Assembly (NCBI GenBank): GCA_963737065.1
Contig: CAVTRC010000001.1
Span: 544,001-608,000, forward strand
Origin: Candidatus Eremiobacteria bacterium
GTDB taxonomy: Bacteria > Vulcanimicrobiota > Vulcanimicrobiia > Vulcanimicrobiales > Vulcanimicrobiaceae
Direction of reading: 5' to 3'
Length of the DNA stretch: 64,000 nt
Position numbers and translations under genes: made by a program. A model generated the notes under the pieces. It had not been told where the DNA came from, did no database searches, and saw nothing but the letters and a program-made list of their open reading frames with translations. Of the stretch, positions 32,585-39,663 are shown piece after piece; the first letter of the stretch is position 1, and each line of letters starts with the position of its first letter.

Positions 32585-33943
32585 CTACGCGAAGATTTGC
32601 CGTGCTCGCAACTCGTGTTTGAATCCTTCGATCGCGTTGAGCGCACGTTGCGCCAGTAAGCGACGGCGCTCTTTCTTATCGCGAACGTTACGATCTAATG
32701 GCGGGAACGGCGCCCACGTGACATTCGCCGGCTGAAAATCCGGTGTCTCGATATTTTGCAAGTGCGCGACCACGGCGCCCAACGCCGTTTCGCGCGGAAA
32801 CTGGACTGGCGGCAATCCGAGGAGAGCGCGCGCCGCATGAATGCCGGTCATTGCACCGCACGCCGCGGCTTCGACGTACCCTTCGGCGCCGGTGATCTGC
32901 CCGGCGAAGTAGATCGACTCGCTTCCGCGTAACCGCAAATGCGCATCGAGCAGCCGCGGGGAGTCGATGAACGTGTTGCGATGCATTACTCCGAGCCGCA
33001 GCCACTCGGCGCTCGCAAGCCCCGGAAGTTTACCGAACGCTTCCTTTTGCGCGGGCCACGAGAGGCGCGTTTGAAAACCGACGAGATTGAATGCCGTTCC
33101 CTCGACGTTTTCTTTGCGCAACTGCACGACGGCATACGGCGTCTTGCCGGTACGCGGATCGCGCAAACCAACCGGCTTCAACGGTCCAAAGCGCAACACG
33201 TCGTCGCCGCGATCGGCCATCTCTTCGATCGGCAGGCAGCCTTCGAAGTATTTCGTCTCGGCTTCAAACTCTTTGGGCTGATGGCGTTCTAGCGTACGCA
33301 GATCGTGCAGTAACTTTGAATATTGCTCTTTGTCGAGCGGAATGTTCAGATAGTCGTCGCCGTCGCCTTTCTCATACCGCGATTTGCGGTACATCGGCGT
33401 CTCATCAATGGAATCCGCCGATACAATAGGCGACGCGGCATCAAAGTAATGCAGCCGTCCGTTGTCATCCCGAGCGGCTCCGAGCACCGCATCGATCTCC
33501 CGCAACAGTGCGTCGCCCGGAAGCGGACCGCACGCCAGGATCACCGGACGATCTCGCGGAATCTCCGTCACTTCTTCGCGATGCAAAGTGATGCGCAAAT
33601 GCGATGAAATGCGTGACTCGACCGCCGCGGCGAACCGGTCGCGGTCCACGGCGAGCGCGCCTCCCGCAGGCACCGCAGCTTCACGTGCCGACGTGATGAT
33701 GACGGAGTCGAGACGCGCGAGTTCTTCTTTCAGCAGCCCGACAGCGTTCTCCAACGCCGCCCCGCGAAGCGAATTGCTGCACACGAGTTCGGCAAGGCGT
33801 CCCGTCTTGTGCGCCGGTCCGCTTCGCTTCGGCCGCATCTCGTAGAGATCGACATCGACACCCGCATTCGCTGCCTGCCATGCGGCTTCACAACCGGCAA
33901 GGCCACCGCCGATGACCGCAACGGAACCATTACGAGGGTTCAT
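32585..33943 (-). CDS. trmFO: Folate/FAD-dependent tRNA m5U54 methyltransferase
   Basis: GGGLAGCEAA, ELVCSNS, YFEGCLPIE, GVMHRNTF. Confidence 0.97.
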   Translation of the reverse strand: MNPRNGSVAVIGGGLAGCEAAWQAANAGVDVDLYEMRPKRSGPAHKTGRLAELVCSNSLRGAALENAVGLLKEELARLDSVIITSAREAAVPAGGALAVDRDRFAAAVESRISSHLRITLHREEVTEIPRDRPVILACGPLPGDALLREIDAVLGAARDDNGRLHYFDAASPIVSADSIDETPMYRKSRYEKGDGDDYLNIPLDKEQYSKLLHDLRTLERHQPKEFEAETKYFEGCLPIEEMADRGDDVLRFGPLKPVGLRDPRTGKTPYAVVQLRKENVEGTAFNLVGFQTRLSWPAQKEAFGKLPGLASAEWLRLGVMHRNTFIDSPRLLDAHLRLRGSESIYFAGQITGAEGYVEAAACGAMTGIHAARALLGLPPVQFPRETALGAVVAHLQNIETPDFQPANVTWAPFPPLDRNVRDKKERRRLLAQRALNAIEGFKHELRARQIFA

Positions 33944-34741: not shown

Positions 34742-34981
34742 ATGCCAGAAAGCCGCAACTATGCCGTCGTTCTCGAACCCGACGCCGAATGCGGATACAC
34801 CGCCATCGTTCCCGCTCTCCCAGGCGTTGTTACCGAGGGTGACACGCTCGAAGAGGTCTTTGCGAACGTACGGGAAGCGATCGAGCTTTGTCTTGAAGAC
34901 CTCGCATCTCGAGGCCTAGATATTCCGGAGAGCGACACCGGCGCTCGGCTGGAGCGTATCGAAATACCAATCGCGAGCTAA
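34742..34981 (+). CDS. hicB: HicB family antitoxin
   Basis: Y.VVLE..GYTAIVPALPGVVTEGDTLEE...N.REAI. Confidence 0.9.
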   Translation: MPESRNYAVVLEPDAECGYTAIVPALPGVVTEGDTLEEVFANVREAIELCLEDLASRGLDIPESDTGARLERIEIPIAS

Positions 34982-34987
34982 TCCCGC

Positions 34988-35209
34988 GTGACGCGCTTGC
35001 CACGCGTCGATTCCACGGAAGTGCTGCGCAAATTGCGTAGCGCCGGCTTCGTCATAGTCGGTACAAAAGGCAGCCATGTTCGTCTCCGCAGCGCGACGGG
35101 CAAAGCTACGACGGTGCCACATCATGCAGGCAAGACGCTTAAGCCGAAAACCTTCGCAGCAATCCTGCAGCAGGCGGGTCTCACGGCCGACGAATTCCGC
35201 AAGCTCTGA
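34988..35209 (+). CDS. hicA: HicA family mRNA interferase toxin
   Basis: L...GF...KGSH, TTVPHH, TFAAIL.QAGL. Confidence 0.9.
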   Translation: MTRLPRVDSTEVLRKLRSAGFVIVGTKGSHVRLRSATGKATTVPHHAGKTLKPKTFAAILQQAGLTADEFRKL

Positions 35210-35699: not shown

Positions 35700-37871
35700 T
35701 CAGACTTCCGCGAGTTCGCGGTCCTCATGCGGCTCTTCGCCCGATTGGCCTTTTGCGAGCGATGAGACGTCGTGTTCTTTGTTCGCCGCGCATTCAAGTT
35801 GCACGACGCCGCCGCGACGCGTCTTCGCAACCACATAGCCGCCGCAGACCGGGCATGGTTCGGGAATGACGCGATCCCACGAGACGAAGTCGCACTTCGG
35901 ATAGTTCGCGCAACCGTAGAACGTCCGGCCCTTCTTCGAACGCCGCTCGACGATCATGCCGCCGTCTTTGGGACACTTCGCGCCGGTGTCTTTGACGATC
36001 GGTTTCGTCGTCTTGCACTCGGGATAACCGGTGCACGAAATAAACCGTCCGAAGCGTCCGGTCTTGATCACCATCGCGCGTTCGCAATTCGGACAGATCT
36101 CGTCCGTCGGTTCGTCCTTGATCTCCAGACGCGGCAGCTTCTTCTCCGCCTCCTCGAGCTCGGTCGAAAACGGACCGTAGAAATCGCGCAAAATGCGAAC
36201 CCAATCGTCTTCGCCGTCGGCGACCTTATCGAGGCTGCCTTCCATCCCGGCAGTGAACTTCAAATCGACGATGTCCTTGAAGTGCTCGGCGAGCAGGTCG
36301 TTGACCGCGGTGCCGATGTCGGTCGGTTTGAAACGCCGCTCTTCTTGCGTCACGTAACCGCGCGCCTGGATCGTGTCGACGATCGTTGAGTACGTCGAAG
36401 GACGTCCGATGCCGTTGTCTTCGAGCGACTTCACGAGCGTCGCTTCGGTGTACCGCGGCGGCGGTTCGGTGAAGTGCTGTTTCGGTTCGAGCTTCGAGCA
36501 GTCCAATGCATCGCGCTCGTGGAGTTCCGGCAATCGAATCTTCGCTTTACCCTTCACCGCGCCGCTGGTCTTCGCGACGTCCGCATCGGGTGCGCCATCA
36601 TCGTCGCGACCCTCTTCATACACCTTGGTGAAACCGGCGAACTTCACGACGCTGCCCGTCGCGCGGAACGTATACTCACGCGCCGCGATATCGACCGTCG
36701 TCTGATCGAGCACCGTCGCTGACATCTGCGACGCAACGAACCGCTCCCAGATCAACGTGTAGAGACGCAGTTCATCGCGCTTGAGCACGTGCGACACCGA
36801 AGCCGGCGTCCGGAACACCGAGGTGGGGCGAATCGCTTCGTGCGCGTCTTGAGCGCCTTCGCGAACCTTGTGAAGCCGGCCGCCGTGAAACTCTTCACCG
36901 TACGTCGCCGTGATGTATTCGCGGGCATGCTCGCGCGCCGCATCGCTGATGCGCGTCGAGTCGGTACGCATGTAGGTGATCAGGCCCTGCGTGCCCTCGT
37001 CGCCGCCGAGATCGACGCCTTCATAGAGCGCTTGCGCGACCTGCATCGTGCGCCGGACGCGCAGGCGCAACTTGCGCGACGCTTCTTGCTGGAGCGTCGA
37101 GGTTGTAAACGGAGCCGGCGCGTTGCGCTTGACTTCGCGCCGCTTGACCGACGAAACGGTGTAGTGCGCGCCGTCGAGCGCGGCCAGAACCGCATCCGCT
37201 TCTTCCTTCTTAGTAATCTCGTATCTCTCGCCGCGCCGCGCAACGAGTTCGGCGGGGAAGAGCAACGCCGGATCGCGATGGGTCGAAAGATGCGCCGTCA
37301 TCGTCCAGTACTCGCGTGGAACGAACGCCGCAATCTCGCGCTCGCGGTCGACGATCAGCCGCACGGCAACCGATTGGACGCGGCCGGCGGATAGACCGCC
37401 GCGAACCTTTGCCCACAGCAACGGTGAGATTTTGTATCCGACGAGACGGTCGAGAATGCGCCGCGCCTGCTGGGCGTTCACGCGATCCATGTCGATGTGA
37501 TGCGGGTGTTTCAGCGCGGCGAGTGCGGCGTCTTTCGTGATCTCGTGCAGCTCGATCCGCTTCGGATTTTCGAGCTTCAGCAGTTCGGCGAGATGCCACG
37601 CAATCGCCTCACCTTCGCGGTCGGGGTCGGTCGCGAGGTAGACGTCGCTCGCGCTTTTCACCGCGCTCTTGAGATCTTTGATAACGTCGCCTTTCCCCTT
37701 GATCGTAAGGTACTTCGGGCTGAAGTCGTTCTCGACGTCAACACCGAGCGTGCTCTTGGGAAGATCGCGAACGTGTCCAACCGACGCTTTGACAATATAG
37801 CGAGCCGGAAGAAACTTCTTGATCGTGCGGGCCTTGGTCGGCGACTCGACGATGATCAGGGGCTTTTTCAC
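35700..37871 (-). CDS. topA: DNA topoisomerase I with C-terminal zinc ribbons
   Basis: IVESPTKA, DPDREGE, SAGRVQS, ITYMRTDS, GIGRPSTY, CxxC ribbons. Confidence 0.97.
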   Translation of the reverse strand: MKKPLIIVESPTKARTIKKFLPARYIVKASVGHVRDLPKSTLGVDVENDFSPKYLTIKGKGDVIKDLKSAVKSASDVYLATDPDREGEAIAWHLAELLKLENPKRIELHEITKDAALAALKHPHHIDMDRVNAQQARRILDRLVGYKISPLLWAKVRGGLSAGRVQSVAVRLIVDREREIAAFVPREYWTMTAHLSTHRDPALLFPAELVARRGERYEITKKEEADAVLAALDGAHYTVSSVKRREVKRNAPAPFTTSTLQQEASRKLRLRVRRTMQVAQALYEGVDLGGDEGTQGLITYMRTDSTRISDAAREHAREYITATYGEEFHGGRLHKVREGAQDAHEAIRPTSVFRTPASVSHVLKRDELRLYTLIWERFVASQMSATVLDQTTVDIAAREYTFRATGSVVKFAGFTKVYEEGRDDDGAPDADVAKTSGAVKGKAKIRLPELHERDALDCSKLEPKQHFTEPPPRYTEATLVKSLEDNGIGRPSTYSTIVDTIQARGYVTQEERRFKPTDIGTAVNDLLAEHFKDIVDLKFTAGMEGSLDKVADGEDDWVRILRDFYGPFSTELEEAEKKLPRLEIKDEPTDEICPNCERAMVIKTGRFGRFISCTGYPECKTTKPIVKDTGAKCPKDGGMIVERRSKKGRTFYGCANYPKCDFVSWDRVIPEPCPVCGGYVVAKTRRGGVVQLECAANKEHDVSSLAKGQSGEEPHEDRELAEV

Positions 37872-37878
37872 GGGGTTC

Positions 37879-37908
37879 AGTATACTCCCGGGGTCAAGAC
37901 GGGGGCAA
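37879..37908 (-). promoter_or_regulatory. Putative topA promoter, leaderless transcript
   Basis: TTGCCC-N18-TATACT, then 7 nt to the GTG start; no SD. Confidence 0.65.
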
Positions 37909-37989
37909 ACGGGATTGGCTGCGCCCGATTCCGTCGCGGTCGGCCTTCGGCCGCGGTGCAGTTGCAAACCGACATCCCGTAAACACGAA

Positions 37990-38037
37990 ACGCGCGCGCG
38001 TGTATACGTGTGCGCGCACATGCGCGTACGCGCGCGT
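37990..38037. other. 48-bp perfect alternating purine-pyrimidine tract (Z-DNA-prone)
   Basis: acgcgcgcgcgtgtatacgtgtgcgcgcacatgcgcgtacgcgcgcgt checked base by base; ends form the inverted repeat aaacgcgcgcg/cgcgcgcgttt. Confidence 0.9.
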
Positions 38038-38066
38038 TTGCATGATTTTGAAAAATCCTTTATAGT
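38038..38066 (+). promoter_or_regulatory. Near-consensus sigma70 promoter of the basic repeat protein
   Basis: TTGCAT-N17-TATAGT. Confidence 0.75.
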
Positions 38067-38138
38067 GCGCTTAAAGCGCACGACGTCGTGCGCTGTCCAA
38101 GTAACGCTTATCGTCCCCCGGGGGACGAGGAGGAATGA

Positions 38139-38585
38139 ATGGACTCCGATACCATGACGAACGGCGACACGATGGGTGAAGCCAAAAAATCGCGCCGCAA
38201 ATCGAGCGGCCGTCGCAAAGCGGCCGGTGGTCGCAAGAAAACCTCGACACGGAAGTCGACGGGTGGACGCAAGAAATCAACCGGCGGACGTAAGAAGTCG
38301 ACCGGCGGACGCAAGAAGTCGACGGGTGGACGCAAAAAGTCGACCGGCGGACGTAAGAAGTCGACGGGCGGACGCAAAAAATCGACGGGCGGACGTAAGA
38401 AGTCGACGGGCGGACGCAAAAAATCGACAGCGGGACGTAAGAAGTCAACCGGCGGACGCAAAAAGTCGACCGGCGGACGCAAGAAGTCGACGCGCAAGAC
38501 CGGCGCACGTAAAGGCGGACGCAAAGCGGCTGGTGGGCGCAAAAAGGGCGCGCGCAAGGGCGGCCGTCGCAAGAAATCAGCGTAA
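38139..38585 (+). CDS. Highly basic histone-H1/protamine-like repeat protein (RKKSTGG)n
   Basis: GAGGAGG RBS, own promoter and terminator, repeat variation almost all synonymous in this frame. Confidence 0.85.
   Translation: MDSDTMTNGDTMGEAKKSRRKSSGRRKAAGGRKKTSTRKSTGGRKKSTGGRKKSTGGRKKSTGGRKKSTGGRKKSTGGRKKSTGGRKKSTGGRKKSTAGRKKSTGGRKKSTGGRKKSTRKTGARKGGRKAAGGRKKGARKGGRRKKSA
38250..38492 (+). repeat. 21-bp coding tandem repeat, 10 full plus 2 partial units
   Basis: cgy aar aar tcr acv ggy gga; one unit reads RKKSTAG. Confidence 0.95.
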
Positions 38586-38604
38586 CGCATAACACGACAA
38601 GCAG

Positions 38605-38636
38605 CGAGGACGACCATTCGGTCGTCCTCGTTTTTT
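38605..38636 (+). terminator. Intrinsic terminator
   Basis: cgaggacgacc-attc-ggtcgtcctcg followed by T6. Confidence 0.9.
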
Positions 38637-39663
38637 ATGCGCTGATTACAACGGGGCCGGCGGTGAGGTTCGGCGCTTTGCCGCCGTGTTCGTCAACCCA
38701 ATGGCACGCCGCAAAATGCCCGGCGCCGTACGCGTTGAATGCCGGCACCTCGGTTTTGCAGCGATCGAACGCAACGGGACAACGCGTGTGGAAACGGCAG
38801 CCCGAGGGCGGATTCACGGGCGAGGGAATGTCGCCGGTGAGTACGATGCGTTTCCGCCGCGTTTCCGTGTCCGGGTCGGGTATCGGAATCGCCGAAAGGA
38901 GCGCTTGCGTGTACGGGTGCAGCGGATTTTCGTAGAGCGAGTCGCGGTCCGCGAGTTCCACCAGCTTGCCGACGTACATCACCGCGACGCGCGTCGAGAT
39001 GTGACGAACGACCGAGAGGTCGTGCGCGATGAAGAGATATGTGAGGCCGAACTTCGCTTGCAGATCTTCGAGCAGATTGATGACCTGCGCTTGAATCGAC
39101 ACGTCCAGCGCCGAGACGGGCTCGTCGCAGACGATGAATTTCGGGTCGACGGCCAGCGCTCGCGCGACGCCGATGCGCTGCCGCTGGCCGCCGGAAAACT
39201 CATGCGGAAAGCGATTCGCGTGATACGGACGCAAGCCGACGAGCTGAAGCAGTTCGCGAACGCGATCGCCGATTTGTTTACCTTTTGCGAGACCGTGAAT
39301 GCGCAGCGGTTCCCCGACGATATCGCCGACCGTCATGCGCGGATTCAGCGAGGCGAACGGGTCTTGAAAGATGATCTGCATTTCGCGGCGCAGGCGACGG
39401 ACTTGCGATGCGTTCATCTTCGTAACGTCCTGGCCGTTGAAGCGAATCGCGCCTTTCGACTCGGTCAGCAGACGCAGAATCAGACGCCCGATCGTCGTTT
39501 TTCCGGAACCCGACTCACCGACGAGTCCCAGCGTTTCACCGGGCGCGATCGTGAAATCCACGCCGTCGACGGCTTTAACATCGCCAACGTGGCGCGATAA
39601 GAAGCCCGCGTGAATCGGGAAGTACTTGTAGAGATCGCGAACCTCGACGAGCGGCTGCGTCAC
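38635..39663 (-). CDS. oppF: Oligopeptide/dipeptide ABC transporter ATP-binding subunit (OppF/DppF)
   Basis: [32 protein letters not shown]. Confidence 0.9.

Follow-up and report, generated by a model that had tools for sequence, protein, structure and literature searches.

Introduction

Between topA and a gene for a very basic repeat protein, here called hlp, an uncultured soil bacterium of the Eremiobacterota (Vulcanimicrobiota) carries an unbroken alternation of purines and pyrimidines (R/Y). The locus raises the question of whether this tract is kept as an element that responds to the twist of the DNA. That Z-DNA has a regulatory role in bacteria is an old proposal with little direct support. 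A passage in a 2026 review (PMC13463272) describes the direct in vivo evidence for bacterial Z-DNA as limited and the support as mostly computational or biochemical.

The initial annotation of the locus interpreted the tract as a B-Z or cruciform switch, which couples expression of the basic protein and/or topA to DNA topology. Overall, this interpretation is partly supported by the analysis presented here. In the following, the window is the complete 64,000-bp stretch of DNA that was analyzed. For comparison, 80 orthologous topA loci with 70-91% identity were fetched, and subsets of them entered the individual counts; single loci are labeled with L and a number.

The divergent genes topA and hlp and their promoters

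The gene on the minus strand encodes a genuine type IA topoisomerase I. Its product contains the Pfam domains Toprim (PF01751) and Topoisom_bac (PF01131) as well as two C-terminal zinc ribbons (PF01396), and it matches the TopA equivalog model TIGR01051 with 796.3 bits, above the cutoff of 456.4. Comparison across the orthologous loci identified the GTG at 37871 as the conserved start. The start at 38081, which results from a mechanical search for open reading frames, is an artefact; a gene beginning there would read through the tract. The hexamer TATACT is located exactly 7 nt ahead of the GTG in 55 of 72 loci, and the topA mRNA is probably leaderless. A TTGNNN motif is found 17-18 nt from this -10 hexamer in 65 of 73 intergenic regions, with a distance of 18 nt in 46 of these. 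The discriminator is G+C-rich. With this discriminator and the 18-nt spacer, the topA promoter should therefore be favoured by high negative supercoiling.

The initial annotation had placed a gene for a very basic repeat protein back to back with topA, and the comparison confirmed this arrangement. Among the 74 loci for which 400 nt or more of upstream sequence are available, 71 have a divergent K/R-rich open reading frame next to topA, and both core promoters are conserved together with the gene pair. The 148 residues of the protein from the window include 37 K, 34 G, 24 R, 18 S and 18 T; within the gene Tandem Repeats Finder detects a 21-bp unit, which is repeated 11.4 times. The syntenic orthologues share an N-terminus of their own (MDSDxMxNG). 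The protein had also been called histone-like. This label holds by composition only, that is for the basic residues and the pI of 12: searches of Pfam, in which even an E of 10 was allowed, and of NCBIfam returned no match, and with zero Pfam matches there is no sign of the HU/IHF-type Bac_DNA_binding fold either. One orthologue (L039) aligned with HC2 (PF07382) at E 4.6e-4 and 20.8 bits, which is below the gathering score of 40. The nearest clusters in the ESM Atlas are unnamed Vulcanimicrobiota proteins; the third-nearest has 28% HC2 members, which we take as a lead only. A homologue search with the hlp protein yielded 22 matches. These were rejected as low-complexity sequences, mostly DUF6496 proteins with similar basic tails, and the orthologues of hlp were better retrieved by synteny than by protein homology search.

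The hlp promoter (TTGCA/G...TAnnnT) is present in 71 of 73 intergenic regions. It is followed by a leader with two hairpins, in which 89.8% of the cells in a 50-sequence alignment are paired and 13 cells have changed on both sides; none of 500 shuffles reached this pairing score. The count used a hand-set structure, and rows from distant clades that were 2 columns out of register were scored as broken. RNAalifold predicted no pairs on a gappy MAFFT alignment of the leader. A scan of positions 37600-38800 against Rfam with E up to 10 assigned no RNA family; the sub-threshold matches on the palindromic tract were to microRNA precursor models, the best of which scored 28.6 bits where the gathering score is 85. 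We also observed that TGCGC/GCGCA words recur as an inverted repeat, which spans the hlp transcription start.

Table 1. Coordinates of genes and predicted elements at the topA/hlp locus (positions in the window).
Feature	Position	Strand	Basis or remark
topA, type IA DNA topoisomerase I, 723 aa	35700..37871	-	GTG start at 37871; Pfam and TIGR01051
topA -10 hexamer TATACT, 7 nt ahead of GTG	37879..37884	-	consensus scan
topA -35-like hexamer TTGCCC, 18-nt spacer	37903..37908	-	consensus scan
Variable spacer, topA promoter to tract	37909..37989	.	length and sequence unconserved
Perfect 48-bp purine/pyrimidine alternation, predicted Z-DNA-forming tract	37990..38037	.	
hlp -35 hexamer TTGCAT, flush against tract	38038..38043	+	consensus scan
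hlp -10 hexamer TATAGT, 17-nt spacer	38061..38066	+	consensus scan
hlp 5' leader, two conserved hairpins and Shine-Dalgarno	38067..38138	+	50-sequence alignment
hlp leader hairpin 1 arms	38075-38081/38088-38094	+	
hlp leader hairpin 2 arms	38112-38118/38121-38127	+	
hlp Shine-Dalgarno AGGAGG	38128-38133	+	
hlp, 148-aa basic repeat protein	38139..38585	+	~11 GGRKKST units, pI 12, N-terminus MDSDxMxNG
hlp intrinsic terminator, 13-pair stem then T run	38603..38632	+	

A long R/Y alternation adjoins the hlp promoter

The 48-bp alternation and the TTGCAT-N17-TATAGT promoter next to it, both described in the initial annotation, were reproduced by reading of the sequence and, for the tract, with a run-length script. 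The alternation is unbroken and rich in CG and CA/TG steps (14 CG, 4 TG, 2 CA and 3 TA), as a Z-DNA sequence should be, and its length suffices for the cost of two B-Z junctions. From the coordinates in Table 1 it follows that the last base of the tract immediately precedes the -35 hexamer of hlp. The G+C content is 71% in the tract and 24% in the promoter core (38038-38066).

Such tracts are rare in this DNA, which was the first point that the annotation had proposed to check. The runner-up R/Y runs in the window are three runs of 16 bp each. When the window was shuffled 300 times with its dinucleotides preserved, the longest run averaged 19.5 bp (sd 2.6, maximum 33) and never reached 48 bp; a first-order Markov model gives an expectation of about 1e-7 runs of at least 48 bp per 64 kb. 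Elsewhere in the window R/Y runs are even depleted. This is true for runs of at least 10 bp (118 versus 154.6 +/- 10.7 in 100 shuffles) and for runs of at least 17 bp (0 versus 2.6 expected from shuffles). Runs of at least 17 bp are also absent from 631,312 bp of DNA that flanks the intergenic region in the orthologous loci. A general suppression of R/Y patterns is reported in a survey of prokaryotic genomes (PMC4060949).

The length of the tract does vary between species. A phase-variable simple sequence repeat (contingency locus) was considered and rejected: Tandem Repeats Finder, with a minimum score of 30, found no tandem array within the window tract, and the tract is located upstream of the -35 hexamer, outside the 17-nt spacer.

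The alternation is kept in related loci while the sequence changes

The intergenic region between topA and hlp makes up 2.6% of the locus DNA. It harbors the longest R/Y run of the whole ~10-kb locus in 34 of 72 cases, with 7 additional ties (binomial P 3e-34 for this placement). In the 72 regions, runs of at least 17, 20 and 30 bp occur in 30, 24 and 12 cases, respectively. In the clade that contains the TopA of the window (SH-aLRT 97) an alternation of 39-59 bp is present in all 12 rows and in the partial locus L002, hence in 13 of 13 members. These tracts occupy the same place between the two genes and their sequences differ. In the 78 pairs from this clade, the tract differences amount to 472 transitions and 1 transversion, whereas the two flanks of the same pairs gave 277 transitions/472 transversions and 293/426, respectively (~60% transversions). 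In six non-overlapping pairs of the same length 39 of 39 tract differences are transitions; the transition test as a whole is partly circular because perfect alternations in the same phase can differ only by transitions. The alignment of the orthologous regions, which had been suggested as a further check, therefore bears out that the alternation is kept as the sequence diverges. An alternation that is maintained as such is what one would expect to see in a Z-DNA element.

A run of at least 11 bp ends 0-4 nt from the hlp -35 hexamer in 31 of 71 promoters. In the close clade, between 49 and 118 nt separate the topA start from the tract, and the spacer of some relatives contains REP-like insertions. 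The fixed spacing on one side and the variable distance on the other tie the tract to the promoter of the basic protein and not to topA.

The same data can be read in another way, which we consider unlikely. The tract could be an array of hexamer sites (Y-R-C-G-C-G) in B-form DNA, to which a sequence-specific regulator or a nucleoid protein binds and controls hlp from the position of an upstream element; the alternation would then be a by-product. Apart from the fixed position next to the -35 hexamer, such an array is suggested by CGCG cores, which are in register with the -35 over ~25 bp, and by the GCGCGCG adjoining the -35, which is kept even in distant loci. Non-CG steps recur every 6 bp, with a co-occurrence of 0.200 at a lag of 3 dinucleotides versus 0.115 expected, and the TGCGC/GCGCA words over the hlp transcription start also fit. 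This periodicity agrees with an array or with hexamer slippage at least as well as with pure selection for Z-DNA, and so does the frequency of TA in the close clade, where this step, which costs the most in Z-DNA, is found 40 times and TG 41 times. However, all of the 304 steps in the close-clade tracts are Y-R dinucleotides, including the varying positions, and free spacers would not require that. The tract length also varies, from 39 to 59 bp, in steps that are not multiples of 6. Furthermore, sequence conservation is limited to the proximal GCGCGCG, with little base-level conservation beyond ~9 bp from the -35, and the six open reading frames of the window neighbourhood include no candidate gene for a regulator.

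The presence of the tract at orthologous loci, which is complete in the clade of the window, does not extend to a sizeable share of the other relatives, where it is short or absent. Close relatives have runs of 14-17 bp (L032, L034) or of only 6-8 bp (L030, L038, L040); in four loci (L003, L017, L028, L054) the phase of the alternation is broken. Across the tree the long tract is patchy and was repeatedly lost, with about a dozen related lineages without it. The long tract is therefore inessential to the conserved topA/hlp pair.

This distribution, including the repeated losses and the interrupted tracts, would be expected if the tract were a compound microsatellite that is unstable and has hardly any function or none. 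Such a CG-rich stretch beside the hlp -35 would grow and shrink by slippage of 2- or 6-bp units and decay by C-to-T transitions, and its long form would be an accident of one lineage. In line with this, tracts can differ much in length and sequence in spite of near-identical flanks, as in L003 and L022, which are distinguished by a 12-bp indel in the tract; the hexamer periodicity points in the same direction, and the TG, CA and TA steps can all be derived from CG by transitions alone. We nevertheless judge this explanation to be improbable. All 13 members of the clade have kept at least 39 bp, and the 39 independent tract differences include 0 transversions, against the majority of transversions in the flanks. 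The absence of other runs of at least 17 bp from 631 kb of the same genomes, the depletion of R/Y runs elsewhere in the window and the negative result of Tandem Repeats Finder also speak against it.

A thermodynamic model predicts an early B-Z transition of the tract

The propensity of the tract for Z-DNA formation was calculated with a single-run model of the SIBZ type. The parameters, apart from four constants, came from the SIBZ table in PMC3024258. The model describes one run at equilibrium, without competing strand separation, and uses E. coli-type parameters. For a (CG)16 control it matched the published onset. The mean P(Z) of the window tract rose from 0.19 at sigma -0.035 to 0.66 at -0.04, where the maximum was 0.956, and reached 0.94 at -0.05. 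None of the other 5-kb tiles of the window exceeded 0.42 at sigma -0.04. The tract is hence predicted to flip from B to Z at a sigma of about -0.035 to -0.04, a superhelical density in the physiological range, and to do so ahead of every other site in the window; this agrees with the Z-propensity that the initial annotation had assumed. In 26 of 58 modelled loci the P(Z) of the intergenic region is predicted to be at least 0.5 at sigma -0.04, and in 12 of the 58 it is predicted to be below 0.01.

The second form of the switch in the initial annotation, a cruciform or hairpin that extrudes from inverted repeats under negative supercoiling and gates the promoters, did not survive as a main explanation and appears highly improbable. 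The inverted repeat exists: its perfect 11-nt arms (37988-37998/38029-38039) overshoot the tract by 2 nt on each side, several imperfect palindromes are present inside, and the folding energies of the single strands are -21 to -29 kcal/mol. However, 30 nt separate the perfect arms and the complementarity of the central arms reaches only 71-73%, so that the locus lacks a long, near-perfect and conserved inverted repeat with a short loop; self-complementarity is automatic in a CG/TA-rich alternation, the predicted shapes differ between loci, and for three of six tracts, those of the window (z -0.72; matched by 50 of 200 dinucleotide shuffles), L001 (z -0.41) and L025 (z +0.06), the folding is no better than that of shuffles. 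Folding was modestly better than in shuffles for L002 (z -1.44), L022 (z -1.92) and L004 (z -2.72).

A possible mechanism

The best explanation of the whole is in our view that the tract is a cis element, which is kept for its R/Y alternation and not for its sequence and which acts via a supercoil-driven B-Z flip; we hold it tentatively, with a confidence that stays a little short of even. Since the alternation persists in related species as the letters change, the tract is a strong candidate for a natural DNA-twist-sensing switch in bacteria.

The switch could work as follows. The tract sits in a region of ~200 bp between two back-to-back transcription starts, whose -10 hexamers are conserved on both strands, and it is flush with the hlp -35 hexamer. 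At low negative superhelicity it would be in the B-form. Rising negative supercoiling, either global or in the twin-domain wake of the divergent polymerases, would convert it into left-handed Z-DNA. Such a flip would take up ~9 helical turns and may clamp the superhelical density to which both promoters are locally exposed. In addition, a B-Z junction and a rigid left-handed stretch would come to lie at about -37 to -85 relative to the hlp start, in the zone of the upstream contacts of RNA polymerase. We commit ourselves to the guess that hlp is transcribed less when the tract is in the Z form. Relaxed DNA would then raise the level of the basic, putatively DNA-coating protein, and over-wound DNA that of TopA. 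We infer the flip in vivo, the change in promoter output and the direction of this change.

A more far-reaching proposal seems possible to us and rather doubtful. The tract may be the first natural bacterial promoter element that is selected for left-handed DNA, a Z-DNA 'torsion valve' between topA, whose product removes negative supercoils, and a gene for an H1-like protein that would coat the DNA. The three parts would form a compact supercoiling homeostat, which is conserved across Eremiobacterota, and the GGRKK-repeat protein may prefer or stabilise Z-DNA and in this way feed back on its own promoter.

Comparison with known systems

In the open-access literature searched we found no description of a layout with topA, an alternating tract and a gene like hlp. 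The known systems closest to the tract are Z-DNA inserts of the type (CG)n/(CA)n, which were engineered into E. coli plasmids and used as torsional sensors (Peck and Wang; Ellison et al.; both summarised in PMC3024258). These inserts share with the window tract an alternating Pu/Py sequence of 26-32 bp or more, a flip at sigma ~-0.03 to -0.04 with the same energetics (modelled for the window tract), and a location on the upstream side of a transcription unit, in the zone of accumulating negative supercoils. Rahmouni and Wells, in a study of 1989 that is cited in PMC13463272, reportedly used Z-DNA inserts in the same way. The engineered inserts are artificial, whereas the window tract is natural and chromosomal, with mixed CG/TG/CA/TA steps and a position that is conserved across species. 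Unlike them, it directly adjoins a -35 hexamer and is flanked by topA and the gene for a basic protein.

A natural case is said to be the 'RY box' of the Halobacterium bop promoter, reportedly described by Yang, Kim, Molinari and DasSarma in 1996 in J Bacteriol 178:840. It is reported to be a promoter-proximal R/Y alternation in a prokaryote as well, with links to non-B DNA and to a stimulating effect of supercoiling. It is said to comprise ~11 bp inside an archaeal promoter of the TATA/TFB type and is not known to be associated with a topoisomerase gene, whereas the window tract is 4-5 times longer and located upstream of a sigma-70-type -35 hexamer.

The arrangement of the promoters resembles cases of homeostatic supercoiling control of topoisomerase promoters (Menzel and Gellert 1983, as cited in a passage of PMC3184054) and of coupling between divergent promoters in the twin-domain model (Liu and Wang 1987, as cited in a passage of PMC13463272). 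The E. coli gyrA promoter is reported to be inhibited by transcription-coupled supercoiling (PMC6170449). As in these cases, topA is back to back with a promoter ~200 bp away, and its 18-nt spacer and G+C-rich discriminator fit activation by negative supercoiling. The known cases depend on promoter melting and twist alone, and none is known to contain a Z-prone tract that is dedicated to this role between its promoters.

The hlp product, with its pI of 12, resembles the chlamydial proteins Hc1 and Hc2 (PF07382, HC2), which are also short and extremely basic, with low-complexity K/R/A/G/S/T repeats. Unlike these, it matches no family profile and has its own N-terminus (MDSDxMxNG).

Significance

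The locus provides a concrete natural test case for Z-DNA in bacteria: amid a general avoidance of R/Y alternation, one site adjacent to topA has retained a long alternation from species to species as its sequence has changed. The tract can be cloned and is amenable to standard topology assays. If the interpretation is true, it would mean that bacteria use the B-Z transition as a regulatory device, and it would show how an uncultured phylum sets the level of its supercoiling.

A single long alternation at the hlp promoter

The topoisomerase I gene topA and the gene for a very basic repeat protein, hlp, are divergent, as the initial annotation had stated. The perfect purine-pyrimidine (R/Y) alternation that it had reported between them was recovered both by a run-length script and by direct reading of the sequence. 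The tract contains 14 CG, 4 TG, 2 CA and 3 TA steps and has a G+C content of 71%. Its last base immediately precedes the -35 hexamer of the proposed hlp promoter, which was also found as described, with no base between the two. The hlp core promoter has a G+C content of only 24%; the tract and this promoter place a Z-prone segment beside an easily melted one.

Features of the topA-hlp locus (positions in the window)
Feature	Position	Strand	Remark
trmFO	32585-33943		
HicB-like antitoxin	34742-34981		
HicA toxin	34988-35209		
topA	35700-37871	-	type IA DNA topoisomerase I
topA start	37871	-	GTG, conserved start
CTTGACC(CC) word	37885-37902		plus strand GGGGTCAAG
R/Y alternation	37990-38037		48 bp, perfect
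hlp -35	38038-38043	+	TTGCAT
hlp -10	38061-38066	+	TATAGT; 17-nt spacer from -35
hlp 5' leader	38067-38138	+	72 nt, strongly conserved
hlp leader hairpin 1	38075-38081/38088-38094		5' end of leader
hlp leader hairpin 2	38112-38118/38121-38127		directly adjoins the AGGAGG ribosome-binding site
hlp	38139-38585	+	very basic repeat protein

The second-longest alternation in the 64,000-nt window measures 16 bp (n=3). In 300 dinucleotide-preserving shuffles, the kind of control proposed in the initial annotation, the longest run had a mean of 19.5 bp (sd 2.6, maximum 33) and never reached 48 bp; a Markov estimate predicts about 1e-7 runs of the tract's length per window. Once the tract is removed, runs of at least 10 bp are under-represented (118 vs 154.6 ± 10.7 in dinucleotide shuffles), those of at least 14 bp number 8 vs 15.2 ± 3.6, and runs of at least 17 bp number 0 vs 2.6. 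Because the rest of the window holds fewer runs than its shuffles, the tract is an exception in a genome that tends to avoid long alternations. This depletion is consistent with a survey of prokaryotes which describes R/Y patterns as mostly suppressed (PMC4060949).

Distribution among relatives

Scanning species-representative genomes with TopA resulted in 80 loci with 70-91% identity (L001-L080), the labels of which are nearly all Eremiobacterota/Vulcanimicrobiota, mainly Baltobacteraceae; the analysis covers 64 kb of the source genome and some 10 kb from each relative. Metagenome bins, from peat and permafrost sites, make up many of the relatives, and their taxonomic labels are inconsistent. 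Complete Eremiobacterota chromosomes among the relatives include OY970311.1, OY969933.1 and OY969429.1. Ten records nested in the Eremiobacterota TopA tree (L004, L005, L008, L036, L039, L044, L060, L061, L071, L075) have titles naming other phyla (Alphaproteobacteria, Acidobacteriota, Babeliales, Dormibacterota, Verrucomicrobiia, Rhodospirillales); these contigs have the topA-hlp synteny, and errors in metagenome binning or labelling are the likely cause.

Upstream of topA, 71 of the 74 loci with 400 nt or more of sequence on that side carry a divergent K/R-rich ORF whose product has the N-terminus MDSDxMxNG, and in two of the other three (L011, L020) the start of this gene is visible at the contig edge. 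Of 73 intergenic regions, 71 contain the hlp promoter (TTGCA/G...TAnnnT), which lies some 95-100 nt upstream of the start codon and has a 17-nt spacer in 70 of these regions.

In the TopA tree, all 12 rows of the window's clade (SH-aLRT 97) carry an alternation of 39-59 bp in the same place, and the partial locus L002 likewise carries one in this range. The sister clade (31 rows) has patchy runs of 6-26 bp. In distant clades, runs of 19-22 bp occur in L009, L064, L068, L071 and L075, and other loci have no alternation. The expectation that orthologous loci share the tract holds for 13 of 13 members of the window's clade; in the other clades the tract is shorter and patchy, or missing. At 31 of 71 promoters, the distance from the hlp -35 to the end of a run of at least 11 bp is 0-4 nt.

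The topA-hlp intergenic region, which makes up 2.6% of the DNA in 72 loci, contains the longest alternation found anywhere in the locus in 34 of them, with 7 further ties (binomial P 3e-34). Runs of at least 17, 20 and 30 bp are present in 30, 24 and 12 of these regions, respectively. The concern that equally long tracts might be common was not borne out in the DNA covered: no other run of at least 17 bp occurs in the window, and none in the 631,312 bp flanking the orthologous intergenic regions. The tract is not an assembly artefact, because it recurs in assemblies made independently of one another, some of them in records with chromosome titles.

Alternation is retained while the letters change

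No two of the 13 long tracts are identical. The alignment of orthologous intergenic regions suggested in the initial annotation indicated that alternation is retained while the sequence diverges: the 78 pairs differ within the tract by 472 transitions and 1 transversion, a test that is partly circular because transitions are the only differences possible between two perfect alternations of equal phase. In the flanks the same pairs differ by 277 transitions vs 472 transversions (left) and 293 vs 426 (right). Six pairs that have no tree branches in common show 3, 15, 2, 2, 15 and 2 tract differences, and all 39 are transitions. The informative part is that perfection outlasts this degree of divergence while about 60% of adjacent non-coding changes are transversions. 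The loci L007 and L008 differ at 3 of 44 tract positions, with 92.7% nucleotide identity in topA and 97% in the intergenic region; therefore the letters of the tract drift at about the silent rate. Indels within tracts are even in length (12 bp in L003 vs L022; 2 + 2 bp in L025 vs L074). When tracts are anchored on the right at the -35, conservation of bases is limited to the promoter-adjacent GCGCGCG and the R/Y class is fixed for about 25 bp.

An unstable microsatellite would account for the fast changes in length, the periodicity, the patchy distribution and the interruptions of the tract in L003, L017, L028 and L054. We consider this explanation unlikely, since neutrality is at odds with the retention of the tract throughout the clade, with the lack of transversions among independent differences and with 631 kb devoid of another such run. 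A protein that recognizes Y-R-CGCG hexamers arrayed in B-form DNA is a similarly doubtful explanation. The non-CG steps do recur at every third dinucleotide (0.200 vs 0.115 expected), TA and TG steps are about equally common (40 and 41 of 304), and the CGCG cores are in register with the -35. However, all 304 steps are Y-R, the variable ones included, which would be unnecessary in a site whose spacers are free.

Predicted B-Z transition

The transition was modelled by single-run statistical mechanics with four constants that we take to be 10.4 and 12 bp/turn, 0.4 turn/junction and K = 2220RT/N; by arithmetic from these assumed values, about 9 turns would be taken up if all 48 bp flipped, and the junctions are predicted at about 37989 and 38038. 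The dinucleotide energies and the junction cost of 5 kcal/mol on which the model is built are those of Zhabinskaya and Benham 2011 (PMC3024258). Applied to (CG)16 in a 4.36-kb circle, the model yields a P of 0.41 at a superhelical density (sigma) of -0.030 and 0.70 at -0.032, and it reproduces the published experimental onset of -0.031 (PMC3024258). With the window's tract at the centre of a 5-kb domain, the predicted mean probability of Z-DNA over the tract is 0.005 at sigma -0.030, 0.19 at -0.035, 0.66 (maximum 0.956) at -0.040 and 0.94 at -0.050. At -0.04 the remaining 5-kb tiles of the window all stay at 0.42 or lower. At the same density, the intergenic P is at least 0.5 in 26 of 58 modelled relatives and below 0.01 in 12.

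Extrusion of the tract's inverted repeats as a cruciform, the alternative raised in the initial annotation, is very improbable: the 11-nt terminal inverted repeat is real and single strands fold moderately better than shuffles in L002 (z -1.44), L022 (-1.92) and L004 (-2.72), but the terminal arms lie 30 nt apart, the central arms are only 71-73% complementary, folding is at the level of dinucleotide shuffles in the other three of six tracts (window -0.72, L001 -0.41, L025 +0.06), predicted shapes vary by locus, and the self-complementarity is a by-product of composition. An RNA element was rejected, as all Rfam matches were sub-threshold and the two core promoters are both located downstream of the tract.

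The flanking genes

TopA contains Toprim, Topoisom_bac and two zinc-ribbon domains and scores 796 bits against TIGR01051 (cutoff 456). A start at 38081, from a mechanical ORF crossing the tract, was rejected in favour of the conserved GTG. In the window, as in 55 of 72 orthologous loci, the motif TATACT sits exactly 7 nt upstream of this GTG, which suggests that the topA mRNA is probably leaderless and begins with GTG. TTGNNN is found 17-18 nt above the TATACT in 65 of 73 regions, 46 of which have an 18-nt spacer. In six to eight loci from distant clades, topA has instead a 24-32-nt leader with a Shine-Dalgarno sequence. The CTTGACC(CC) word within the promoter spacer is kept across nearly all loci and might act as an operator or as part of a second promoter. 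A short repeat-like element (with words such as CCTGAGC...GTCGAAGGA) occupies the spacer between topA promoter and tract in L003, L004, L006, L017, L035, L038, L040, L041, L044 and L046, and close kin are without it (24 bp in L003, missing from L022); its appearance is that of a small insertion of the REP or MITE kind. Between trmFO and topA lies a HicB-like/HicA pair.

The hlp product has 148 residues with a pI of 12 (K 37, R 24, G 34, S 18, T 18) and about 11 GGRKKST units; a strong terminator follows the gene, and its transcription is predicted to begin near 38073. Of the label "histone-like", the basic K/R-rich composition stands; comparison of the protein with Pfam and NCBIfam models gave no match and leads to a family are weak, so that "histone H1-like" is best taken as compositional. 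Across loci the N-terminus MDSDxMxNG and the C-terminal RKKK are retained and the repeat unit is swapped wholesale by lineage (GGRKKST, GGRKKAA, VRKAVRKK, ARKGVRK, AKKTARK). Similar GGRKK tails occur on unrelated DUF6496 proteins in the same family of bacteria. In the hlp leader hairpins 89.8% of cells are paired, with compensatory change in 13 cells, a result matched by 0 of 500 shuffles. The leader has no match among Rfam families and may be a cis-regulatory or mRNA-stabilising element.

Discussion

An R/Y box is known from a haloarchaeal promoter, and homeostatic topoisomerase promoters and twin-domain coupling are also known. Rahmouni and Wells reportedly used engineered Z-DNA inserts as torsion sensors. 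Such inserts are also described in PMC3024258. Here, in contrast, the tract is natural, phylogenetically maintained in bacteria, abuts a -35 and is paired with topA. A search of an open-access library found no natural maintained bacterial tract of such length in this position, in line with the initial annotation, which knew of no described system of this layout.

The observations indicate that alternation is selected for, at a set distance from the hlp -35, in a promoter region that is divergent with topA, and we are highly confident that selection maintains the tract as a structural element. That it is specifically a Z-DNA switch, a B-Z element driven by supercoiling, is the best-supported reading and a tentative one. 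According to this model the tract would flip to Z when negative superhelicity between the two promoters exceeds a threshold, and local torsion would thereby be capped. The region of upstream contacts of the hlp promoter would then be left-handed and stiff, with a junction near -37, and hlp transcription might be reduced, which is a guess. We infer the flip in vivo, its effect and the sign of this effect. Any effect on topA would be topological and not positional, because the distance from the tract to the topA start varies among loci and insertions in the left spacer are tolerated.
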